Positions 25,978 to 35,649 of a stretch of 40,697 nt of DNA are shown here, piece by piece. Every line of letters starts with the position of its first letter. The first letter of the stretch is position 1. Source of the stretch: a virus; UHGV virus genome UHGV-1333064; one strand, 5' to 3'. The notes below the pieces were generated by a model. It made no database searches. It had not been told where the DNA came from and saw nothing but the letters and a program-made list of their open reading frames with translations. A program made the position numbers and the translations under genes.

Positions 25978-26082
25978 CATCGAATGAATGCACTACTCCA
26001 TCATTGATTTCAGATTAAACAAAAATCGCCACTTTGTAAAGTGTAGTTTTCTAGATAAATCCTATTTCATAGAAAACATTCA

Positions 26083-26847
26083 CTATCGCGTGACTTTGTT
26101 CAACATCTGGTTTGCGTACTCTTCCTGCTTGATGCACTCACCTACCAGACTTTCGAAAAAATCCTTGTAAGACCTGCGCCACGTGGTTTCAGGTATATCC
26201 ATCACCGTTACGCAGATGTATTTACGGACGCTATCAGGTAGCAATCTGGCATAACCACGCCCATTGCAGCGCGTACAGGTTTTATATGCAGGAACGCCGC
26301 GCTGTAGAATAGTTTTCTCTTTGTCTAATACTGTTCCTTTGCCATTGCACTGGCATGCGTTGGTCAGAGCACCCTTCCCTTTGCATTTGTGGCAAAGCAC
26401 CTTAACCATCTCTCTTTTTTCGCTAAGGTGTGGCTGTCCGATATGCTTCATCGTCATTACTTCAGCTTCGACAAACTTATTTCCATTGCAGCAGTCGCAC
26501 GTTCTGGTACTGGCGGCGCTCCGGGAGTAATCAGCAAAGGCGAAAGTTGCGAGAACTTGCATTACCTTTGGCTTAACATCGCTCTCAAGCTTGCGTAAGG
26601 CGGCAACCTTATCGCAGTGCTCAATTGCATATTTGGTCAGCAGGTCAATTGCTCGCTCGCGATCGTAATCGCTGATATCCATCTTACCGAGGAATGCACT
26701 GAACCCGAGATCAGCCCGGCTCTGTGTCATTCCGATCGCCGCCATAATGTCAGTGCCGGTTAATGAGTCAGATGCGGTTGCACGTGGAGCGTCGCTAATC
26801 ATCGTTGACTTCGCGAAGTGGTATTTCACTGTGTTTTCGAGATTCAT
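26083..26847 (-). CDS. late-gene antitermination protein Q-like
   Basis: 254-aa ORF immediately upstream of the lysis cassette, with Cys-rich zinc-binding motifs (CDCCNGNK, CHKCKGKG, CQCNGKG, CTRCNGRG). Confidence 0.65.
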   Translation of the reverse strand: MNLENTVKYHFAKSTMISDAPRATASDSLTGTDIMAAIGMTQSRADLGFSAFLGKMDISDYDRERAIDLLTKYAIEHCDKVAALRKLESDVKPKVMQVLATFAFADYSRSAASTRTCDCCNGNKFVEAEVMTMKHIGQPHLSEKREMVKVLCHKCKGKGALTNACQCNGKGTVLDKEKTILQRGVPAYKTCTRCNGRGYARLLPDSVRKYICVTVMDIPETTWRRSYKDFFESLVGECIKQEEYANQMLNKVTR

Positions 26848-26986
26848 GCTTCTGCTCCTGATGGTTTATAGCGGCTGATGTAATTGCGTAAAATTCGGTA
26901 GTCCGTAGCAAATGAACCCGGGTGACGATAGATGCGTAACCGAGTCCATCGCAGACGAAGATGATCAGCAAAGTAGGATTCGAATG

Positions 26987-27349
26987 TCATGCGGACTCCA
27001 GTTCAGTAATGGTCAGTTCAAGTCTGCCGCCTTTGACGACCGGCATTCTCTTCACGCTGTAGTAGTCGACTTGTTGGTCATCGAGCCAGAACCCGGATTT
27101 CGTCAGGGCGTCGAACGCGGCCTTTTGCAGATTGTCCAGGTCGCGGCGGCGGCGATCCGGCATATGGCACTCAATGCGTATTTTCACGGGTGTAGCCAGG
27201 CCGATATCCAGCATTGAGTCTTTGATGATTCTGGCGACACTGTCGCGGTACGCCTGCCCATCTGTGCTGATGTGCGTGCGCCCGCGATTATGGCGGTAGT
27301 AGCGGTTATTGCTCGGCGGCCAGGGCAATGTGATGTTGTAAGTATTCAT
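26987..27349 (-). CDS. rusA: Holliday junction resolvase RusA
   Basis: Track ORF trimmed to [18 protein letters not shown] (ATG overlapping the upstream stop, ATGA); N-terminus and the DxDN region match RusA-family resolvases. Confidence 0.8.
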
Positions 27350-27636
27350 GCCTTGATTACCCCCTCTTTCAGCCAGATAACCTGCGTTCTCGCCATACCT
27401 TCCAGCGCGCATTCTTTAGCATACTCAGCATCGACAAAATGTGTACGGCGGTCGATCTCGTCGTGACAGGCAGAGCATGCAATGGTGGCAATAAGGTCTG
27501 GCGGTTTAATACCGGTGCCGCACAATCCAGCCAGCCGGATATGTGCCAGTACAGACGTTTCAGGATTGCCATTACATACGCCAGGGATTCTTACCTGGCA
27601 TTCCCGACCACGCGCTGCTTTTCTCAAATCAGCCAT
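27346..27636 (-). CDS. Nin-region Cys-rich protein (DUF1364-like)
   Basis: 96-aa ORF with motifs [11 protein letters not shown] and [11 protein letters not shown]; ATGA-coupled to RusA downstream and to the small ORF upstream. Confidence 0.55.
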
Positions 27637-27798
27637 GTGACCTCCGCGCTTTCAGGCGATCCCATTTCACCTGGGTCAGTCGCGCGGTGTAGCCGAGCAG
27701 TGATGGGATTTCGGATGGCTTGAGTTCAGGCTTGCGCTTAGTGCGTGTCCGGACCCGGTAGATTTCGTTGGTGATGATGCGAGCGAGAGGGCTAGCCA
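27628..27798 (-). CDS. small hypothetical protein (56 aa), not in the supplied ORF track
   Basis: ATG 27796-27798 overlaps the NinB stop (TAATG) and its TGA overlaps the DUF1364 ATG (ATGGCTGA). Read by eye as [56 protein letters not shown]. Below the track's length cut-off. Confidence 0.4.
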
Positions 27799-28236
27799 TT
27801 ACGCAACCCTCCCGAAGTAATCACCTGAGTAGCGAACTTCACGGAGTTGCACGCCGTTTTGCACAGCAAATGCCTGGCTGTATTCGATGAGACTGGTCAT
27901 GCGACGGATGCCCATCTTCGCAGTGCTTTCCCGGATGGCGCAGAACTCCCCTTCCAGACCCGGCACCACTTCACCAGGCTTACCGGTGGCAATGGCATGG
28001 CCTGAGACATACAGGACTTTCCATGAAGCGAGGTCGCGCGACTTGCCAGCCCATTGCAATTGCTTCGCTGTATCGCCACAGAGAGCGTGGAAGAGGTCGT
28101 TTTGGGCGAGAGTGCGGTCAGCCTCAGAAAACTTCACCACGAGCGGCAGAGCGTCGTTAACAGGCAGCTTCCTGATGTAGTCGATGAGGTTATCGCGAAC
28201 GCGTTCGTCGCGGAGGTAGAAAACAGGCTGTTTCAT
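27799..28236 (-). CDS. ninB: recombination protein NinB
   Basis: Track ORF trimmed to MKQPVFYLRDERVRDNLIDYIRKLP...; strong recalled similarity to lambda NinB (Orf). Confidence 0.8.
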   Translation of the reverse strand: MKQPVFYLRDERVRDNLIDYIRKLPVNDALPLVVKFSEADRTLAQNDLFHALCGDTAKQLQWAGKSRDLASWKVLYVSGHAIATGKPGEVVPGLEGEFCAIRESTAKMGIRRMTSLIEYSQAFAVQNGVQLREVRYSGDYFGRVA

Positions 28237-28449
28237 ACGCCACCTCCGAGAGGTAACGCAGAATACAGAAAATCGCAGGTGCATTTCTGCATCTGTGACA
28301 AGGTGAGGAGTTCAGATTGTGGTCGCATTTAAGTCCCCTTAAATGCGAAGAAGTCTGCCAGGGTTGTTCAGGCCGCTGGCAGATTTATTATGGCTCGTTG
28401 ATAGTGTTTTATCAAACGTTGCTTGACGTTTAGTTATGCGTCGAATGGG

Positions 28450-28785
28450 TTAGGCATCATCCACCTCTGGCTTTTTGAAATTAGCCTCGATGGACTCTCC
28501 TAGGCGCTTTAACCAATCAGCCAGTTTGAGCGCCGCGTCTTCCGGAGTTTTCTGTCCCGGAAAATCAGTGATGATGATGCTGGCTTGATGATTACCAAAC
28601 CCATCTCTGTTTATCACCATTCCCTGCTCAAGCACCGTCTGTTGGTTGCTGTGCTTAACGTAGTAACGAGCCTCAGAGCTTCCAGTGCTGCGCTCTTTGA
28701 CGTAAGAGACAAGCTCCACCTCAGTGGTGATGGTCTTACCACGCTCCGCCTCAAGACGCTGAATTAGCTTAACGAAATCGTTCAT
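28450..28785 (-). CDS. hypothetical protein
   Basis: 111-aa ORF, last gene of a translationally coupled operon (overlaps the upstream gene by 4 nt). Confidence 0.4.
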   Translation of the reverse strand: MNDFVKLIQRLEAERGKTITTEVELVSYVKERSTGSSEARYYVKHSNQQTVLEQGMVINRDGFGNHQASIIITDFPGQKTPEDAALKLADWLKRLGESIEANFKKPEVDDA

Positions 28786-29564
28786 TCGGCCTCCTGCTGC
28801 GGTGCAGCTGCCTGCTCAGCTGCCATAGCCGCATCGATTTGCTCGCGTAATTTAGTCGCGTGATAATCATCCTCTTCATCCGTGATGGTCTGCGACCAGA
28901 AAAGGCTATGGCTTCCGTAAACCATAGGCTCACGAACATCAACGGTTTTCGATACCAGCCAGTCCATGCGGCGTACGTCATCTGGAATCACCGGAGAGTT
29001 GCCACCCTGAACAGTAGGCATATCCGGACCTTTGCGAATCGCCATGGCAAGATCGATTTGGTCGTCGTACAACCAGTCACCTGTTTGCGGATGATTGGCT
29101 TCTGCCAATTGTGCAGCCCACTCCAGGCCGTCTTTGTGTCCTTGCAGATAGTCCAGCGGTAACTCATCACTATTACTTACAGGTTCGGCCTGAAGCATGG
29201 CGGCGCGATAGGCGTTCCAGCCGACAGCTTTTCCGTGTTCAAACGCGCTGTCAAAGTCATCATCAATTTCCATCGCAGCGGGCACAGATACCGGCGCTGG
29301 CGGGGCGGTATAAAACTTCGTCCCCAGCGGAAACAACTTCATCGCTTTTTCTCCCTTAATGATGCGATAAGTTGATTTCCCGCCAAGGTCTACCGTTCCA
29401 TCCATAATAAGGCCGTATCGCTTCTCTGAAACTTCACCAATAGGATCTGCTTCCAGTGATGCCAAAGCAATCCGTGCCACTTCCATTTGTTCGCTACGAG
29501 TAAGCCCGTTTTCAAGCGGATTTTTAATGAACAATTCAATACGTTCTTTGGTAATAGTGCTCAT
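28782..29564 (-). CDS. hypothetical protein (acidic, 260 aa)
   Basis: Long ORF in the coupled operon; no recognisable motif by eye. Confidence 0.45.
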   Translation of the reverse strand: MSTITKERIELFIKNPLENGLTRSEQMEVARIALASLEADPIGEVSEKRYGLIMDGTVDLGGKSTYRIIKGEKAMKLFPLGTKFYTAPPAPVSVPAAMEIDDDFDSAFEHGKAVGWNAYRAAMLQAEPVSNSDELPLDYLQGHKDGLEWAAQLAEANHPQTGDWLYDDQIDLAMAIRKGPDMPTVQGGNSPVIPDDVRRMDWLVSKTVDVREPMVYGSHSLFWSQTITDEEDDYHATKLREQIDAAMAAEQAAAPQQEAE

Positions 29565-29567
29565 GGG

Positions 29568-30002
29568 TTAGTCCTCACCTTTCTGTTGCACTACCGGAAC
29601 CGATAAATCGACGCACCAGGAGATAACGCCGAATTGATCATCGTTCTGCGCTTCACCCCAAACGTAATATTTTGATCCTGGCCGACCCATTGCCGGGTCA
29701 AATACTTCTATGCCGCGTTCTGCCGTTAACGACATCAGAATCTGATGCAGGCCGCCTTTGATGTTCAGTGACGGAACGGTCAGGAAGTAAATAAACCCGT
29801 AAAGCAATTCGGCCTTGCGCTGGCTTCCGTAAAAATACGGGATTTTGTAATAATCCAGCGCGTCGTCGAGCCAGTCTGTTTTGTCGTGGAATTTCTGATG
29901 CCAGCGTTCCACTACCTCATCGACAGGTTGACCGGCAACCATTGCAACGCAGGTAGCCATGCAGGTGTTAAATGTTGGCTGCATTTGATGTTGAAGCATC
30001 AC
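29568..30002 (-). CDS. hypothetical protein with papain/C39-like cysteine peptidase signature (tentative)
   Basis: N-terminal Q..NTCMATCVAMV resembles the catalytic Cys region of C39-type peptidases (Q...CG.AC.AM) and a later GGLHQI could supply the His. By-eye assignment only. Confidence 0.35.
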   Translation of the reverse strand: MMLQHQMQPTFNTCMATCVAMVAGQPVDEVVERWHQKFHDKTDWLDDALDYYKIPYFYGSQRKAELLYGFIYFLTVPSLNIKGGLHQILMSLTAERGIEVFDPAMGRPGSKYYVWGEAQNDDQFGVISWCVDLSVPVVQQKGED

Positions 30003-30712
30003 TCCCCCTTACCGATGCCAGCGGCGCGGTCTATGCGTTCGATTTCAGCCAGAATTAAAGCCCATGCTTTTACCAGGTTGCGACGGCGGGCATTTGGCTT
30101 CCACCATGAAGCATCCCAAGGCCACCCCCACGGCTTGCCACCATTGCGGTTAACAGTTCCTGTTTCGTTTATGTAACAAACCGCCGCCATTGCCAGTTCG
30201 CCGTTGCAGTGCTCGTCATCATGCTCAGGCGTCCATCCCTCAACTGATTGATGGCGTTGACGCTCTGCAATTACTGACTGAACGGCATTGGATAGCGATT
30301 TCACACCCTGCGCACGCACTTCAGCCAGGAAAGCGTCGGTGGCTGGGGTTTTGGCATTCTCCAATAATGCTATTGAATCCTGAGCGTCACAAAGACGTAA
30401 TAGTGCGTCCATTTGCTCGCCATCAGCGTCATAGCTGAATAGACCATGATCATCATGATGTGCTTCCATATTTTCTGAGGCCTGCAGTATTCCAGACTTC
30501 AGCCCAGCATTCTCCACAGCCAGCGCCGCGCACTTGGCCTCAAGGTTATCAATCGTGATTCCAGCAGAACGACACTCCCGCAACGCCGTTTCTAGTTTTG
30601 ATTCAAGTTCACCGAACTTACGGACAAGATATTCAGCGTTTGTTTCGTTAACCTTTAAATCTCGTGGAATGCACTTGCCACGCAGAAAACCTTCCATCTC
30701 AAATAATTTCAT
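29999..30712 (-). CDS. hypothetical protein, Ea22-like (coiled-coil N-terminus, DUF550-like C-terminus)
   Basis: Track ORF trimmed to MKLFEMEGFL (ATGA overlap with the wHTH gene). C-terminal W.PEHDDEHCNGELAMAAVCYI...WPWDASWWKP recalls the Ea22-family C-terminal domain. Confidence 0.45.
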   Translation of the reverse strand: MKLFEMEGFLRGKCIPRDLKVNETNAEYLVRKFGELESKLETALRECRSAGITIDNLEAKCAALAVENAGLKSGILQASENMEAHHDDHGLFSYDADGEQMDALLRLCDAQDSIALLENAKTPATDAFLAEVRAQGVKSLSNAVQSVIAERQRHQSVEGWTPEHDDEHCNGELAMAAVCYINETGTVNRNGGKPWGWPWDASWWKPNARRRNLVKAWALILAEIERIDRAAGIGKGE

Positions 30713-31053
30713 ACCCCTGCCCTCCCCCAAACCATCAATACTCGCTTCATCGCCGCGCTGTTGCGGCACTCCTGGCAGATCACGTTTGCCTCTGTACGCT
30801 GCACCAGCTTCGAATTTCCCTTCGGCATAGCCGGGATTGTTTCTGGTGCGTATTTCATGCCGTAATCGGTCAGCCGATAAAGCCGCTGTCCGTGCTTGCC
30901 TTCGAACTCGATCAAGCCGTCTGCCAGCAGCGTGCTCACCGTTCCGGATATCTTTTTGGTGGTCATGCCGATAAGCCCTGCCAGTTTGGCGTTGTTCAAC
31001 CCTGGGTTGTTGCGCAGGGCTGCCAGCAGTTGCTCACGAATTGTTATGGTCAT
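30709..31053 (-). CDS. winged-helix DNA-binding protein, hypothetical
   Basis: Track ORF trimmed to MTITIREQLLAALRNNPGLNNAKLAGLIGMTTKKISGTV (HTH-like); ATG overlaps the DnaB stop (ATGA). Confidence 0.45.
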   Translation of the reverse strand: MTITIREQLLAALRNNPGLNNAKLAGLIGMTTKKISGTVSTLLADGLIEFEGKHGQRLYRLTDYGMKYAPETIPAMPKGNSKLVQRTEANVICQECRNSAAMKRVLMVWGRAGV

Positions 31054-32489
31054 CAGAACCCCCCTTTCTTTTTCGGCTGCTGCTCGCGCCCGCGGCGTTC
31101 TGCGGCGGCGGCCTGCTGGTCTGTGTCGTAAATTGCCCCGTTGATCTGATTGCAATAAACCGTTCCGGTACTGCCGTGGCGGTTGAGTCGCAGGATTAAC
31201 TCGGTTTCTCCAGGCGGCACGCTGTCATCGAAAGCACCTTCCCGGTGGATGCCAACCCAGTAGTCGCAGTCCTGCTCAATCTGTCCTGTGTCGCGGGAAT
31301 CGCTCGGCAACGGGCGTTTATTCACTCGCTTCTCCAGTTCGCGGTTGAGCTGGGTCAGCAGCACGACGACGCAGGCAAGCTCTTTGGCGAGGTTCTTCAA
31401 CCCTTTGGTGATCATCCCGTAGGCCAGGTCATTACGGTCGGCTTTTTCGGCTGTCATCAGCGTCAGGTAGTCAACCAGGATCATGCCTACGCAGCCCTTC
31501 TCGCGTTTGATTCGGCGGCTTTCGCTAACGATGTGCGCCAGTGACAGTCCCGGAGTGTCGTCGATGTACAGCATGTCGATTTCACTCAGCCGGCCAGCTG
31601 TAGCGATCGCCTTCTTAAAGTCTCCGTCGTAGTCGCCCTGGTACTGGTCATCGGCGTCATCCGTGGCGGGCATGTAAAAAATGCTCGGATTTACGCCGGA
31701 CTTCTGACCAACCAGTTTTTCGAGGATCTGGTAGCCCGGCATTTCAAGGCTGAACATCAGCGCTGGCTTTTTCTCACGAACCGCGCAGTTGATCGCCATC
31801 TGACCGTACAGGGTTGTCTTGCCCATCTTTGGCCTTGCGCCAATCACGAACAGAGAGCCTTTAACCAGACCTTTCGGCGCCAGCAGCCGGTCGAGTGACG
31901 GGATGCCGGTGCTCATGCCGCGCTGTTCGCCTGAAGGGTCAAAGCGTTTCTCCAGATCTGCTACCCAGTCATCCATAACCTCGCCGAACGACCGCAACCC
32001 ACGGCGACTACCGGTTTTTGAATGGTCTGCGAGCTGGGTGAAAATACCCTGAATGGCCTCGTACTTCTGCGTGGCGCTCATGCCATTGCGGGAATACAGC
32101 AGCTCAGTAGCTTCGGTCAGGCGGCTGATACCGTAGCGCTCCATTGCGGCTTCCCGGACTGACGCAGCGTATGCCACGATGTTTGCAGCGCTGGGAGTGT
32201 TCTTGGCTATCTCCGCCAGGTAAGCAAAGCCACCTACCTGCTCAGCGAGTCCTTTTCCTTCAAGCGCGTCGAACAATGTCAGGCCATCGACTGGCTTGTT
32301 GTCGCGGAACATCTGGCGCATCTCGGCAAAGATCAGCTGGTGAGGTCGGCTGTAAAACGACTCAGGCTTGAGCATCGCCAGAACCTTCTGGACTCGCTCG
32401 CTGTTGTCATCATCCAGCAGCAGGCCACCGATAACGCTCTGCTCTGCTTCGAGGTTTTGTGGTACGGCCATGAAATCAGCGGTCATCAC
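31053..32489 (-). CDS. dnaB: replicative DNA helicase, DnaB family
   Basis: 478-aa protein with Walker A (GARPKMGKTT), DnaB-type motifs (LFSLEMP, IDDTPG, LVDYLTLM) and an N-terminal DnaB-like domain (SVIGGLLLD). Confidence 0.9.
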   Translation of the reverse strand: MMTADFMAVPQNLEAEQSVIGGLLLDDDNSERVQKVLAMLKPESFYSRPHQLIFAEMRQMFRDNKPVDGLTLFDALEGKGLAEQVGGFAYLAEIAKNTPSAANIVAYAASVREAAMERYGISRLTEATELLYSRNGMSATQKYEAIQGIFTQLADHSKTGSRRGLRSFGEVMDDWVADLEKRFDPSGEQRGMSTGIPSLDRLLAPKGLVKGSLFVIGARPKMGKTTLYGQMAINCAVREKKPALMFSLEMPGYQILEKLVGQKSGVNPSIFYMPATDDADDQYQGDYDGDFKKAIATAGRLSEIDMLYIDDTPGLSLAHIVSESRRIKREKGCVGMILVDYLTLMTAEKADRNDLAYGMITKGLKNLAKELACVVVLLTQLNRELEKRVNKRPLPSDSRDTGQIEQDCDYWVGIHREGAFDDSVPPGETELILRLNRHGSTGTVYCNQINGAIYDTDQQAAAAERRGREQQPKKKGGF

Positions 32490-33381
32490 GATCCCCCTCG
32501 CGCACTTCGATGTAGAGCTTTTCGGTCAGGAACTTATCGAATTTCATGCGGCGCCAGGTCTTCCCGGATTTCTGGTCTGGTCGGTCTTCAAGCATCCATC
32601 GGCAGTTCTGAGCGATGTAACGCAGATAACTTCTGAAACCGTCCATGTCCATCGGCTTGCCGTCCAGGTTGCGGGCAATTTTGTTAGCCTTACCCCAGAA
32701 TGTGCGGATCAGATTGCGTCGCTCATCAGTGAGGCATCTCCATCCCCTGGCTTCAGGCAGTTCGTCTTTCAGGCATTGCCACACTTCATCGCATGACAAA
32801 CGAGACTTTTTCTCTTCAGCGGGTTTCTGGTCATTTGCGACATACTTACTACCGTTAGGTAGTAAGTTATTTAATATATTGTTATCTGTGGACACTGGCT
32901 GGACATCGGCTGGACACTCCACCTCCACAGGCATTGATATAACTGCGTTTGCGCTGGACACCGGCTGGACATCGGCTGGACAAAAATTTGACTGATATTC
33001 GTCATATTTGACCACTTTTAGAACAGTAAAACGGTTGTTCGATTTGGTGGTGATCATGCCCAGGTTCTGGAATTTACGGAGCAGTGATTTAACGCGATCA
33101 GCGGTCAAACCCGTTTCCATTGCCAGCGTGTTTCGCCCGGTAATGAACTCTCCGCGCTCGCAGATCACATCGCCGACATCAGTAGATACCAGTGTCTGTT
33201 CGTGATTAGCACGCAGGAGCATGTGAACCCATAAATGAGCCGCCTCAGCGTCCTTGTAGAACGGCACATCCATAATTTTACGGTGCAGCAAGGCAAACCC
33301 CTTACCGTCATTCGTGCGCGGTTTCTGGAGCCTTCTGGCCTCTCTGGCTTCGGCTAAATTGGATACGTTACCCACGGCCAC
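32476..33381 (-). CDS. replication initiator, lambda O-like, with internal origin repeats
   Basis: 301-aa ORF immediately upstream of DnaB; contains iteron DNA that produces the repeated peptide PADVQPVS, as lambda O contains ori-lambda. Confidence 0.6.
   Translation of the reverse strand: MAVGNVSNLAEAREARRLQKPRTNDGKGFALLHRKIMDVPFYKDAEAAHLWVHMLLRANHEQTLVSTDVGDVICERGEFITGRNTLAMETGLTADRVKSLLRKFQNLGMITTKSNNRFTVLKVVKYDEYQSNFCPADVQPVSSANAVISMPVEVECPADVQPVSTDNNILNNLLPNGSKYVANDQKPAEEKKSRLSCDEVWQCLKDELPEARGWRCLTDERRNLIRTFWGKANKIARNLDGKPMDMDGFRSYLRYIAQNCRWMLEDRPDQKSGKTWRRMKFDKFLTEKLYIEVREGDRDDR
32886..33030. repeat. candidate origin of replication: six GGCTGGACA iterons in two triplets plus an AT-rich tract
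   Basis: TGGACA repeats at 32889, 32900, 32911 and 32955, 32966, 32977 (11-bp spacing within each triplet), followed by AAAAATTTGACTGATATTCGTCATATTTGACCACTTTTAGAACAGTAAAA. Confidence 0.6.
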
Positions 33382-33607
33382 TCTCCTTACGTTTCAGTTC
33401 TTCCAGGATGGCGCGCATCTTCTCTGCCACAATCGGGTTAACCGAGCGGATGAAGCGGTCGCGGGTTATGTTTTTATGTACAGCGGTATGGTAATAGCGT
33501 GGATTTTTTGCCATTATTCCTCCTGCAATGAGTGCACACGATTTGCATCTGAAGGCCAGTTCTGTTCGCGCAGACTGGCTTTCGCCATTTTTGAAACTTC
33601 CCATCAC
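33368..33607 (-). CDS. small hypothetical protein
   Basis: 79-aa ORF, ATGA-coupled to the upstream CII/YdaT-like gene and overlapping the O-like gene start. Confidence 0.35.
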   Translation of the reverse strand: MMGSFKNGESQSARTELAFRCKSCALIAGGIMAKNPRYYHTAVHKNITRDRFIRSVNPIVAEKMRAILEELKRKESGRG

Positions 33608-34146
33608 ATAACCCCCAACATCGAAGTGACCATAGCCATCAGCGGCGCGGTCAGATCCGGGTCGACACGGAACATCTCTACAATCCCCTCACTGAGTTCC
33701 TTGAGCTTCTGGTGACGCGGGGCGTTCATCGCAACGGCCACTTTCGCCTCGCTCGTTTCTTTCTCAAGTCGAGCTAAGCGGGACATAAAACTGTCCTCTG
33801 GAAGAAGTCGATGGCGATACTCCAGCGGCAAAACGGCCATGATTGCGGGCGTCAGCTGGCGCACGTTCTCGCGGTACTGCTCAGAGTCGAAGCGGTTATC
33901 CAGGAAGCGGAACAGCTTCTGGCGCGCCCGGCTGATGTCGTCCGGAAAGCTGATGGCGGTCCCGCCCTGCTCCCGGTATTCGTTGATGATCAGCGCTGAC
34001 ACCACGTCCTGATTATCCAGCGCCGATGACCAGGCACGGACCGCATCGCGGATCTTTTCGTGGTCCGGCGTCGCTTTAGCTTGAGCGCGGTTTATCATCG
34101 CTCCCGGGTGTATTCCGGTATTGTGTTGATACGCAAGTGAATGCAT
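33604..34146 (-). CDS. CII-like / YdaT-family early regulator candidate
   Basis: 180-aa ORF directly downstream of the Cro-like gene on the early-right strand; position matches lambda cII / Rac ydaT. Family assignment is from memory. Confidence 0.45.
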   Translation of the reverse strand: MHSLAYQHNTGIHPGAMINRAQAKATPDHEKIRDAVRAWSSALDNQDVVSALIINEYREQGGTAISFPDDISRARQKLFRFLDNRFDSEQYRENVRQLTPAIMAVLPLEYRHRLLPEDSFMSRLARLEKETSEAKVAVAMNAPRHQKLKELSEGIVEMFRVDPDLTAPLMAMVTSMLGVM

Positions 34147-34163
34147 TGCTTTCCCTTTCGTGG

Positions 34164-34397
34164 TTAGGCCGCAGTATCACGCGGCGATGCGAATACCAGG
34201 CTTTCTTTTAGGACCGGAGCCTGGCGGTGAAAATTCTTCGTGCCTTTCTCGATAGCAGATGCCATTTCTGGAGATGCCCGGCGATTTCCGTAGGCGATCT
34301 GGTCCAGGTAACCTGGCGTCGTGTTAGCCAACTTTGCGAGCTGCGCCCATTCGTCGGTAGTGGCGGCCTTGCGCCAGCGGTGTAGTTCAGTGCTCAT
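34164..34397 (-). CDS. Cro/YdaS-like HTH regulator
   Basis: 77-aa ORF divergent from the repressor gene across the operator region; HTH-like segment EWAQLAKLANTTPGYLDQIAYGNRRASPEMASAIEKGT. Confidence 0.6.
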   Translation of the reverse strand: MSTELHRWRKAATTDEWAQLAKLANTTPGYLDQIAYGNRRASPEMASAIEKGTKNFHRQAPVLKESLVFASPRDTAA

Positions 34398-34429
34398 TGG
34401 TGTCTCCGGGTGAGTCGTTTGATTTGGAG

Positions 34430-34495
34430 TTTAGCGTTATGCTAAATACTACGCAAGCATCATTTAGCAATTTGCACATTTATCATTTTGCTAAA
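34430..34495. promoter_or_regulatory. right operator region: three 17-bp operators (6-5-6, half-site TTTAGC) between the divergent cro-like and cI-like genes
   Basis: O1 TTTAGCGTTATGCTAAA (34430-34446, perfect palindrome), O2 TTTAGCAATTTGCACAT (34463-34479), O3 TTTATCATTTTGCTAAA (34479-34495). Confidence 0.6.
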
Positions 34496-34513
34496 AGCAG
34501 TAACAATGCAGGT

Positions 34514-35191
34514 ATGGAAAATAAAGAAATCAGAAAAGCCAACCTGGAAGCGCTGTACGAGAAGCGTCAGCACGAGTCTGGAATGACCAAAGCGCAGTTT
34601 GCCGAGCTCATCGAGACAAGTCCGGCTGCGCTTAGCCAGCTACTGGGACCAAACCCTCATCGCAATATCGGCGATAAGATGGCTCGCAAAATTGAAACTG
34701 CGCTTGATCTGCCTTTTGGCTGGATGGATGTTTTACACGCCAGTGAAGAACCTTCGAACGTTGCATTTCGAGGACTGAACGAGACAAAAGGAAGTTATCC
34801 TGTAATCAGCTGGGTAAGCGCGGGGCAATGGATGGAAGCTGTAGAACCTTATCACCGAAGAGCGATAGATCGCTGGTATGACACGACTGTTGACTGCTCA
34901 GAAGATTCATTCTGGCTGGACGTTAAAGGGGATTCTATGACCTCCCCGGCTGGACTAAGCATACCCGAGGGAGCAGCGATACTTGTTGATCCTGAAGTCG
35001 AGCCGCGCAACGGAAAGCTGGTTGTCGCGAAGCTAGAAGGCGATAACGAAGCGACCTTTAAGAAGCTTGTAATCGATGCCGGCAGACGCTTCCTAAAGCC
35101 CCTTAACCCCGCATATCCAATGCTAGAAATTAATGGAAACTGCAAAATCATCGGCGTTGTGGTTGATGCCAAAATACTAAACATCCCATAA
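34514..35191 (+). CDS. CI-like repressor (N-terminal HTH, C-terminal LexA/S24 autopeptidase domain)
   Basis: Track ORF 34397 (TTG) trimmed to ATG 34514 (MENKEIRKANLEAL). C-terminal region parallels lambda cI (GDSMTSP, ILVDPEVEP, ATFKKLVIDAGRRFLKPLNPAYPM), so the S24 Ser/Lys dyad is likely present. Confidence 0.8.
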   Translation: MENKEIRKANLEALYEKRQHESGMTKAQFAELIETSPAALSQLLGPNPHRNIGDKMARKIETALDLPFGWMDVLHASEEPSNVAFRGLNETKGSYPVISWVSAGQWMEAVEPYHRRAIDRWYDTTVDCSEDSFWLDVKGDSMTSPAGLSIPEGAAILVDPEVEPRNGKLVVAKLEGDNEATFKKLVIDAGRRFLKPLNPAYPMLEINGNCKIIGVVVDAKILNIP

Positions 35192-35210
35192 CCTCACGCA
35201 AAACCCCTCA

Positions 35211-35236
35211 AGCCCGCCATCGCGCGGGCTTTTTTA
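35211..35236 (+). terminator. intrinsic terminator after the repressor gene
   Basis: AGCCCGC-CATCGC-GCGGGCT followed by TTTTT, 20 nt after the repressor stop. Confidence 0.55.
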
Positions 35237-35274
35237 CGTCCCGAATTACTTCGCTGTAAATTTTTAATCGCTTA

Positions 35275-35349
35275 TTAATCAATACGCTAAATAAAACCAT
35301 TCAATAATTTAGCATTTTGCTATTGCGCATAATTTAGCATCACGCTAAA
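35275..35349. promoter_or_regulatory. second operator cluster (left-operator-like): three 17-bp sites with TTTAGC/GCTAAA half-sites
   Basis: TTAATCAATACGCTAAA (35275-35291), TTTAGCATTTTGCTATT (35308-35324), TTTAGCATCACGCTAAA (35333-35349); same 6-5-6 architecture as the 34430-34495 cluster. Confidence 0.5.
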
Positions 35350-35649
35350 TTTACCCCATCGAAACGAAACATCGACAGCTGAGCGAAGTTAGCCAGCGGC
35401 GGACAGCAAGTCGCCTGCTCATTAAGAATTCAGTCAAGCAGCAAATCACCCGGAGCGCTCCTGGCAAATTGAAATGGCGCCCAATGGGATTGAGGCAGGT
35501 GTGTAACGCGTGGCGGGTATAGCACACGAAGAGGACTCCGCACCGGAATGGTTTGCTGCTCAGTTCCCGAACATCGGGGAAGCTTTACCAGCAGCTCTTT
35601 GCGAGGGGCTGACGGCAAATCTACTCCACTTATTTAAAAGAGACGGTAT

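Follow-up and report, generated by a model that had tools for sequence, protein, structure and literature searches.

A five-gene version of the lambdoid ren slot that carries a free-standing C39-like peptidase

The virus genome UHGV-1333064, a stretch of 40,697 nucleotides (nt) that we refer to at its full length as the window, is that of a lambdoid phage or prophage of Enterobacteriaceae, with Enterobacter phage CobraSix (26% of the right half at 94% identity) and phi80 as its nearest records. Between the gene for a DnaB-type replicative helicase and ninB, the first gene of the nin region, lies a block of five genes on the minus strand (28450-31053), here called g1 to g5 in the order of transcription. 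The product of the third gene, g3, is by its predicted fold and aligned catalytic residues a member of the C39/papain-like (clan CA) cysteine peptidases, and the block that surrounds it is a five-gene version of a position, the ren slot, already known to be hypervariable among lambda and its relatives.

All five open reading frames (ORFs) are present where the original prediction, made from the sequence without database searches, had placed them: g1 at 30709..31053 (114 amino acids, aa), g2 at 29999..30712 (237 aa), g3 from 29568 to an ATG at 29999 or a GTG at 30002 (143 or 144 aa), g4 at 28782..29564 (260 aa) and g5 at 28450..28785 (111 aa). Each product matches a PHROG family, with E-values between 1.9e-28 and 5.8e-56 (phrog_142 at 1.9e-28 for g1, phrog_60 at 3.4e-28 for g4 and phrog_1258 at 5.4e-32 for g5), so these are five real genes, and a Shine-Dalgarno-like G-rich stretch precedes each of them. 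For g3 the ATG at 29999 is the more likely start, and it is the one used in RefSeq and in most homologues. The flanking genes are likewise as proposed, with the helicase gene upstream (31053..32489; Pfam DnaB_C 1.4e-57, DnaB 2.6e-31) and ninB downstream (27799..28236; Pfam NinB 5.5e-39), and these matches confirm the accessory position of the block between replication genes and ninB. A structured spacer of 213 nt (28237..28449) separates g5 from ninB. Read in the direction of transcription, the region begins with a YdaT gene next to a divergent cI-type repressor gene (Peptidase_S24 and a helix-turn-helix domain), and continues through a small ORF, an O-like gene, the helicase gene and g1 to g5 to ninB, ninE, ybcO, rusA and Q, the last four of which have Pfam matches to NinE, YbcO (5.1e-43), RusA (1.1e-19) and Antiterm (1.6e-43).

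The junctions of the block are tight. The helicase gene and g1 overlap by 1 nt (TGATG), g1 and g2 by 4 nt (ATGA), g2 and g3 by 1 nt (TGATG, or by 4 nt as GTGA with the GTG start) and g4 and g5 by 4 nt (ATGA), so the claim that every junction overlaps by 1-4 nt is right for four of the five; it fails at g3/g4, where TAAcccATG leaves a spacer of 3 nt. Stop-start coupling at these four junctions speaks for an alternative in which g1 to g5 form one co-functional system, of an anti-defence, exclusion or toxin-antitoxin-like kind, with g3 processing or regulating g2 or g4; we judge this rather improbable. The same coupling runs through the operon as a whole: of the 13 junctions between ydaT and Q, 10 overlap by 1-14 nt, and gaps occur only at g3/g4 (+3), g5/ninB (+213) and rusA/Q (+139). 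Since overlaps extend from ydaT to rusA, tight packing is no mark of a five-gene unit.

The protein of greatest interest in the block is g3, the N-terminus of which had been thought to resemble the catalytic cysteine region of C39/papain-like peptidases. A peptidase fold is indeed predicted for it. The AlphaFold2 (AF2) model is confident, with a predicted local distance difference test (pLDDT) of 86.7 and a predicted template-modelling score (pTM) of 0.84. In the numbering of the 144-aa, GTG-start form, which is used throughout, helix 14-23 begins with Cys14, strand 85-93 has His86 at its start, and Asp102 follows directly on strand 97-101; the modelled layout is papain-like, with the cysteine at the N-terminus of a central helix and the histidine and aspartate on adjacent strands. 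In a Foldseek comparison of the model with the PDB the top match was the peptidase domain of PCAT1 (E 5.9e-3, probability 1.0), and the best structural matches are the C39 domains of the double-glycine leader peptidases PCAT1, ComA and LahT. Within the viral library of Foldseek the best matches are uncharacterised phage proteins (template-modelling score ~0.8) and a Bacillus phage protein named "Peptidase C39 domain-containing protein".

Conservation among relatives points to the same residues. An alignment of 25 close relatives carries the pattern Q-x5-C-x3-C ... GGxH ... DP, and in an alignment of 108 family members, with 24-59% identity to g3, no columns are invariant but those of Gln8, Cys14, His86, Asp102 and Pro103. 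That the whole catalytic set is invariant argues against an inactive C39-like scaffold. The Pfam model Peptidase_C39 (PF03412) is matched by 34 of these 108 sequences (best E 2.4e-6), Peptidase_C39_2 by five and Peptidase_C58 by seven; the link of g3 to C39 is transitive, because these relatives match PF03412 and g3 does not. Searches of PDB sequences with g3 alone and with the 25-sequence profile gave no match. An exhaustive profile search places 855 clusters at 50% identity in the family, 531 of them at E<=1e-10, and among the 150 best-scoring clusters nearly all are free-standing proteins of 135-170 aa. The family is phrog_4049, which is listed there without a function; a few depositors label members as a C39 or bacteriocin-transporter peptidase domain, and most of the database copies found here are called "hypothetical". 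On the strength of modelled fold and aligned residues, g3 is best described as belonging to a free-standing phage branch of the C39-like peptidases.

The candidate nucleophile is so near the N-terminus (13-14 residues) that a signal peptide would not fit, which argues for action in the cytoplasm. We consider g3 most likely to be active there, with Cys14 as the putative nucleophile, His86 as the base, Asp102 orienting the histidine and Gln8 contributing to the oxyanion hole, as the model and the alignment suggest. By analogy with all characterised C39 enzymes, it would most likely cut a specific protein after a Gly-Gly-type motif of small residues. The possibility that g3 instead serves as a peptidoglycan endopeptidase or lysis accessory, in the manner of the C39-like or C71 domains of phage lysins, appears very remote: the protein has no signal peptide, transmembrane segment or wall-binding domain, its gene sits in an early operon far from the lysis genes both in the window and in related prophages, the family is linked by sequence to PF03412 and not to lysin families, and in phage CAjan a separate endolysin/holin cassette lies 1 kb from the g3 homologue.

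The closest structural matches might also be taken to mean that g3 is a leader peptidase for a phage-encoded double-glycine bacteriocin or peptide, since PCAT1, ComA and LahT have that function. These C39 domains are parts of ABC transporters, whereas g3 is a free-standing protein of ~143 aa encoded in phage early operons, with neither a transporter nor a leader-peptide gene nearby. No ABC transporter gene or conserved small-peptide gene was found beside g3 in ~25 contexts, and the free-standing form of nearly all of the best-scoring clusters further makes this explanation a highly improbable one.

A more instructive comparison is with StbD-CT, the only cytosolic C39 toxin so far characterised, from a CdiA-like protein of Citrobacter rodentium, which cleaves GyrB and ParE (bioRxiv 10.64898/2026.05.07.723447). 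The spacing of the g3 pattern Q-x5-C-x3-C...H...D corresponds to that of Gln177, Cys183, Cys187, His258 and Asp275 in StbD-CT. StbD-CT, unlike g3, is the domain of a delivered toxin and comes with an entry domain as well as an immunity protein; g3 has no immunity-like partner, and there is no specific sequence relationship between the two, g3 being no closer to StbD-CT than to the C39 domains of transporters.

Homologues of g3 reach well beyond lambdoid phages. Virulent phages of Certrevirus, Mydovirus, Stephanstirmvirinae, Seuratvirus, Enhodamvirus (VP5) and Samunavirus and an unclassified Aeromonas phage carry versions with 25-49% identity among unrelated neighbours. In Enterobacter hormaechei a homologue with 83% identity lies in a leftward operon with a TraR-like gene upstream and DUF4222 downstream, and in Serratia one with 60% identity has a DNA methylase gene upstream. 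In Kuttervirus phages, here Salmonella phage SeF6a (ON809764.1, 102370-102900; locus L012 of our comparison), the g3 homologue is placed directly between the genes for the large and the second subunit of the phage topoisomerase II, an adjacency that is suggestive given the GyrB and ParE targets of StbD-CT. It raises the alternative of a host-takeover or counter-defence protease with a Gly-Gly target, either the ATPase subunits of gyrase and topoisomerase IV or, in the manner of a deubiquitinase, bacterial ubiquitin-like defence conjugates. We regard so specific a target as unlikely. The linkage to topoisomerase genes was considered as a general feature and set aside, for it is confined to the Kuttervirus lineage, and neither the prophages nor the other seven contexts from virulent phages show it; that g3 is no closer to StbD-CT than to transporter domains likewise tells against so specific a target. 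Since temperate and virulent phages alike have g3 among their early genes, with no conserved neighbour, its substrate is more likely to be a host protein or a common phage protein than the product of an adjacent gene; we think it most likely that g3 would cleave a host protein, or a phage protein that is widely shared, early in infection or induction.

Copies very close to g3 have a different distribution. An identical protein is widespread, with 2,533 index blocks, yet rare among complete E. coli genomes (9 of 5,426). E. coli 730V1 and KCJ3K291 and loci L026, L028, L030 and L031 have it in the ren-nin slot; E. coli G5 and loci L029 and L035 have it in the leftward early region, close to the prophage end. 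All ten contexts examined for identical g3 show it preceded by a gene with the g2-type C-terminal domain that runs up to the g3 start, and followed, 3 nt past the g3 stop, by a g4-type gene. This constant company speaks for a single co-functional system, together with the movement of the g2 C-terminal domain and g3 on one 732-bp module and the repetition of most of the layout at locus L028. Only copies with 97-100% DNA identity show the linkage; at 83%, 60% and 25-49% protein identity the neighbours are unrelated. Linkage restricted to near-identical copies reflects recent common descent and not selection, and because the neighbours of g3 change completely at 83% identity and below, the block is a transcriptional neighbourhood and not a conserved functional system.

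Within the same set of close copies, E. coli ABWA45 (CP022154.1, ~2.733-2.745 Mb; loci L032-L034) holds a tandem array of g3, with five 100%-identical repeats of 917 bp in a locus of 8.4 kb. The repeated unit consists of g3 and a hybrid ORF of 160 aa with a g4-like start and an end resembling the g2 C-terminal domain. Overlapping loci and a count of seven places suggest six or seven copies in all, and the array is either a real amplification or an artefact of assembly.

Comparison of gene content across related phages and prophages shows a mosaic, and the block is not a conserved, well-characterised replication-associated set. At most 64% of the 2.9-kb block is found in any one place among phage records and complete E. 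coli genomes. One shared segment extends from 28200 or 28257 to 29312 and covers the spacer, g5 and the C-terminal part of g4 in the E. coli TC24 prophage and at L028, ending at 29213 in HK225; within it, the stretch 28979-29312 inside g4 is found at nearly every locus. The mobile module of 732 bp (29543-30274, minus strand) comprises the last ~91 codons of g2, which encode its C-terminal domain, the whole of g3 and the first seven codons of g4. It occurs at many loci, with 97-98% identity and the same end points in at least six independent ones, and also inside the 917-bp repeat of ABWA45. Further upstream, 30497-30774, with the g2 N-terminus and the 3' end of g1, is 100% identical in ABWA45, and g1 is shared with three loci at 91-93% identity. 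Breakpoints fall inside g4 (at ~29213, 29312-29314, 29443 and 29543) and inside g2 near residue 147, at the start of its C-terminal domain, so both genes are in-frame chimeras. The GC content of g2 to g5 is 49-51% and that of dnaB, g1 and ninB 56-57%, a contrast that fits a separate origin of the inserted genes.

A reading of the block as one co-functional five-gene operon is not supported, as the overlaps are operon-wide and the genes are separately mobile modules. The modules also live apart, for g1, the g2 C-terminal domain and g5 are each widespread without the others. PADLOC finds no member of a defence system in the block, the best match being a weak one of the winged helix-turn-helix type for g1 (9.4e-5, CARF-associated HTH), and the single-system explanation thus also has no convincing PADLOC family match to draw on.

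The first gene can be assigned with some precision. The winged helix-turn-helix protein that had been predicted is seen in g1 (Pfam HTH_24, 8.7e-6), and it is more exactly a homologue of Ren. It belongs to phrog_142, "Ren-like exclusion protein", and aligns by BLASTP with lambda Ren over the full length at 29% identity (E 2e-10), the two sharing the C-terminal motif ECRxSAAMKRVLxVxG. A Ren-like gene occupies the same position, directly after a replication gene, in HK225 and HK639. Work by Toothman and Herskowitz in 1980 is said to have linked Ren with Rex exclusion, and the publications on Ren considered here report only a Rex-Ren interaction and a possible role in replication. By analogy with lambda Ren, g1 would probably protect the phage from exclusion of the Rex type.

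The second gene encodes a composite protein with an N-terminal module (residues 1-40), a helical middle and a C-terminal domain from about residue 141, and its PHROG matches divide accordingly, with phrog_583 and phrog_614 in the N-terminal part and phrog_14548, phrog_9763 and phrog_6628 in the C-terminal part. The last ~95 residues are sharply conserved (ERxRQ, EGWTPEHDDxH, WPW, WWKP, AEIERxDR). The region of this domain (30002-30358, minus strand; residues ~120-237) is represented in at least 7,947 protein clusters and 171 phage records, with hosts that range from E. coli to those of Pseudomonas, Rhodobacter, Nostoc and Microbacterium phages, and Nostoc and Acinetobacter phages have it as a free-standing protein of 117-134 aa. 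The full protein has no match in Pfam, NCBIfam or PDB sequences, and a profile of the C-terminal domain finds none in the PDB or Pfam. An AF2 model of the domain from a 47-sequence alignment is all-helical and unreliable (pLDDT 60, pTM 0.38). Its invariant histidine, aspartate and glutamate residues hint at a metal site. As a by-product, then, this analysis draws attention to a very large phage domain family that has neither a Pfam model nor a structure.

The description of g2 as Ea22-like holds in a loose sense only. Comparison with lambda Ea22 by BLASTP showed no similarity (E 0.42), PF13935 (Ead_Ea22) is not matched at E<=1, and no match was found among PDB sequences, which should include the Ea22 C-terminal domain. 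The label does apply in that the C-terminal domain is common to proteins that NCBI names "ead/Ea22-like family protein", the PF13935 matches of which lie in their N-terminal parts. In lambda Ea22 a coiled coil joins a short N-terminal part to a C-terminal domain (PMC7093339, PMC10834534), and this three-part layout is comparable to that of g2; the Ea proteins of the exo-xis region are, moreover, early, non-essential and modular (PMC7093339, PMC10834534). Ea22 genes belong to a leftward operon, whereas g2 and g4 belong to a rightward one, and related genes are present in the exo-xis-type region of HK140.

The two proteins noted as having no recognisable features, g4 and g5, remain so, since neither has a family or PDB match that would give a function. 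Searches with g4 found nothing in Pfam (including DUF551, at E<=1), NCBIfam or the PDB; a BLASTP comparison with lambda Ea22 showed no similarity (E 2.1), PF13935 was not matched at E<=1, and a pairwise comparison with g2 revealed no similarity. The N-terminal ~115 residues of g4 vary among phages, and the C-terminal ~145 are near-identical by BLASTP in HK225 gp57 and the TC24 protein; relatives annotated with DUF551 (TC24 and ABWA45) diverge from g4 in exactly the N-terminal region. The product of g5 is 98% identical to HK225 gp58; more distant relatives (32-40% identity) are encoded by phiKO2, N15 and P1 and, among P22-like phages, in the nin region. It has no PDB match, and Pfam and NCBIfam gave no recognised family. 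A marginal match of residues 24-98 to Cmr5, the small subunit of type III-B CRISPR systems (TIGR01881, E 0.0085; PADLOC, E 0.0023), is probably due to chance, given the number of searches.

Lambda, phi80, HK225 and other phages already show the architecture of the block. In lambda the equivalent interval is P-ren-ninB, where ren overlaps P by 4 nt. Like ren, g1 lies directly after a replication gene with a stop-start overlap and is followed further on by a spacer and ninB; the slot of lambda contains this one gene and that of the window five, and the preceding replication gene is P in lambda and a DnaB-type helicase gene in the window. In phi80 the slot has one accessory gene, an annotated inverted repeat (IR4) and then ybcN, and in HK639 a Ren-like gene, three further genes, a terminator, two more genes and NinB. 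Closer to the window are HK225 (gp51-gp58: a Ren-like gene and seven accessory genes, the last a homologue of g5), the TC24 prophage (DnaB, a winged helix-turn-helix gene, four genes, a 336-nt homologue of g5 and NinB) and locus L028 (an Ea22-like gene, g3, a gene for 249 aa, a gene for 111 aa and NinB). These three share with it the succession of replication genes, a Ren-like winged-helix gene, a coupled run of Ea-type genes, a g4-type gene, a 111-aa g5, a spacer and nin genes. They differ in the genes at the middle of the run, which include an HNH endonuclease gene, an EaE-like gene and others, and HK225 and TC24 lack g3; all five genes together are reproduced in no record.

The spacer that closes the slot is itself conserved, at 99% in HK225, TC24 and L028. 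Its predicted RNA fold has an energy of -66.5 kcal/mol (z = -5.6 against shuffled sequences), with hairpins at 28354-28383 and 28323-28348, and its only terminator-like pattern is a weak one at 28291-28274. In phi80 the inverted repeat IR4 is annotated in the corresponding spacer, and it falls within the megablast match between the window and phi80. The spacer of the window sits in the place of lambda tR2, which lies in the ren-ninB interval. The terminator of HK639 was considered as a counterpart and rejected, as it lies elsewhere in the HK639 block. A scan of 26000-35500 against Rfam gave no credible RNA family.

A promoter scan of 27700-34500 found none inside the block. With no promoter-like site inside it, g1 to g5 are most likely expressed together with the replication genes on infection or induction and not from the repressed prophage, and they would be co-transcribed with dnaB. 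The sole sigma-70-like site of the scanned interval lies in the spacer, upstream of the first hairpin (28387-28415, minus strand; TTGATA, 17 nt, CATAAT, 10 of 12 positions); with 4.3 such sites expected by chance, it is probably not meaningful.

At the upstream end of the operon, the divergent cI-type repressor gene is followed downstream by the YdaT-family gene (33604-34146, minus strand; Pfam YdaT_toxin 6.9e-27), at roughly the position of cII in lambda. The same arrangement of YdaT and repressor is seen in the E. coli prophages TC24, 730V1 and ABWA45.

Taken together, we think it likely that the ren slot of a lambdoid early-right (PR-type) operon has here undergone mosaic expansion from one to five independent early accessory genes, one of which encodes an active, cytoplasmic peptidase of the C39 type. 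The five genes would be co-transcribed with the replication genes, ahead of a structured spacer that may act as a terminator, and translated through the stop-start coupling that characterises the operon at large; g2 and g4 would be domain-shuffled proteins of the Ea type, g5 a small protein, and g1 and g3 the Ren homologue and the peptidase described above. Ranked by likelihood, the alternatives run from the host-takeover target, a narrower form of the preferred idea, through the single system to the peptidoglycan peptidase and the bacteriocin leader peptidase, which are equally improbable.

Several observations weigh against the account that we prefer. No Pfam model, peptidase or other, matches g3 itself at E<=1, NCBIfam likewise gave it no recognised family, and the 108-sequence profile reaches LahT in the PDB only weakly and non-significantly (E 1.3), with the Q, C, H and DP positions in register. 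Papain-like folds with a Cys-His-Asp set also deamidate, transfer acyl groups, act as transglutaminases and cleave isopeptide bonds, so that cutting after Gly-Gly is an analogy, and our reading of the literature turned up nothing on the function of phrog_4049 or of free-standing C39 peptidases from phages. The copies of g3 that are 97-100% identical are always flanked by the g2-type C-terminal domain and a g4-type gene, and g3 may thus have a functional link to these. Neither spacer hairpin is followed by a U-run, and in the absence of such tracts termination can only be surmised. The mechanism of lambda Ren, on which the role proposed for g1 is modelled, is itself poorly understood.

A broader proposal can be offered as a tentative possibility, by analogy with StbD-CT: that the members of phrog_4049, a family found in temperate and virulent phages of Proteobacteria, are widespread early effectors that cut a conserved host protein or a ubiquitin-like defence conjugate after Gly-Gly and so take over or disarm the cell. 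Were this true, the Kuttervirus copy between the topoisomerase II genes would point to a phage that brings its own substitute for a host enzyme which it destroys.

As a block, the five genes are ordinary, a textbook case of mosaicism in the ren/nin slot with in-frame shuffling of domains inside ORFs. The useful outcome is the firm assignment to C39, with predicted catalytic residues, of an unstudied and widespread family of phage proteins. Early proteases made by phages are, to our knowledge, rare and poorly understood. As a small, soluble, single-domain protein found in lambda-like prophages of E. coli, g3 would provide an easy entry to the question of what phages cleave in their hosts.

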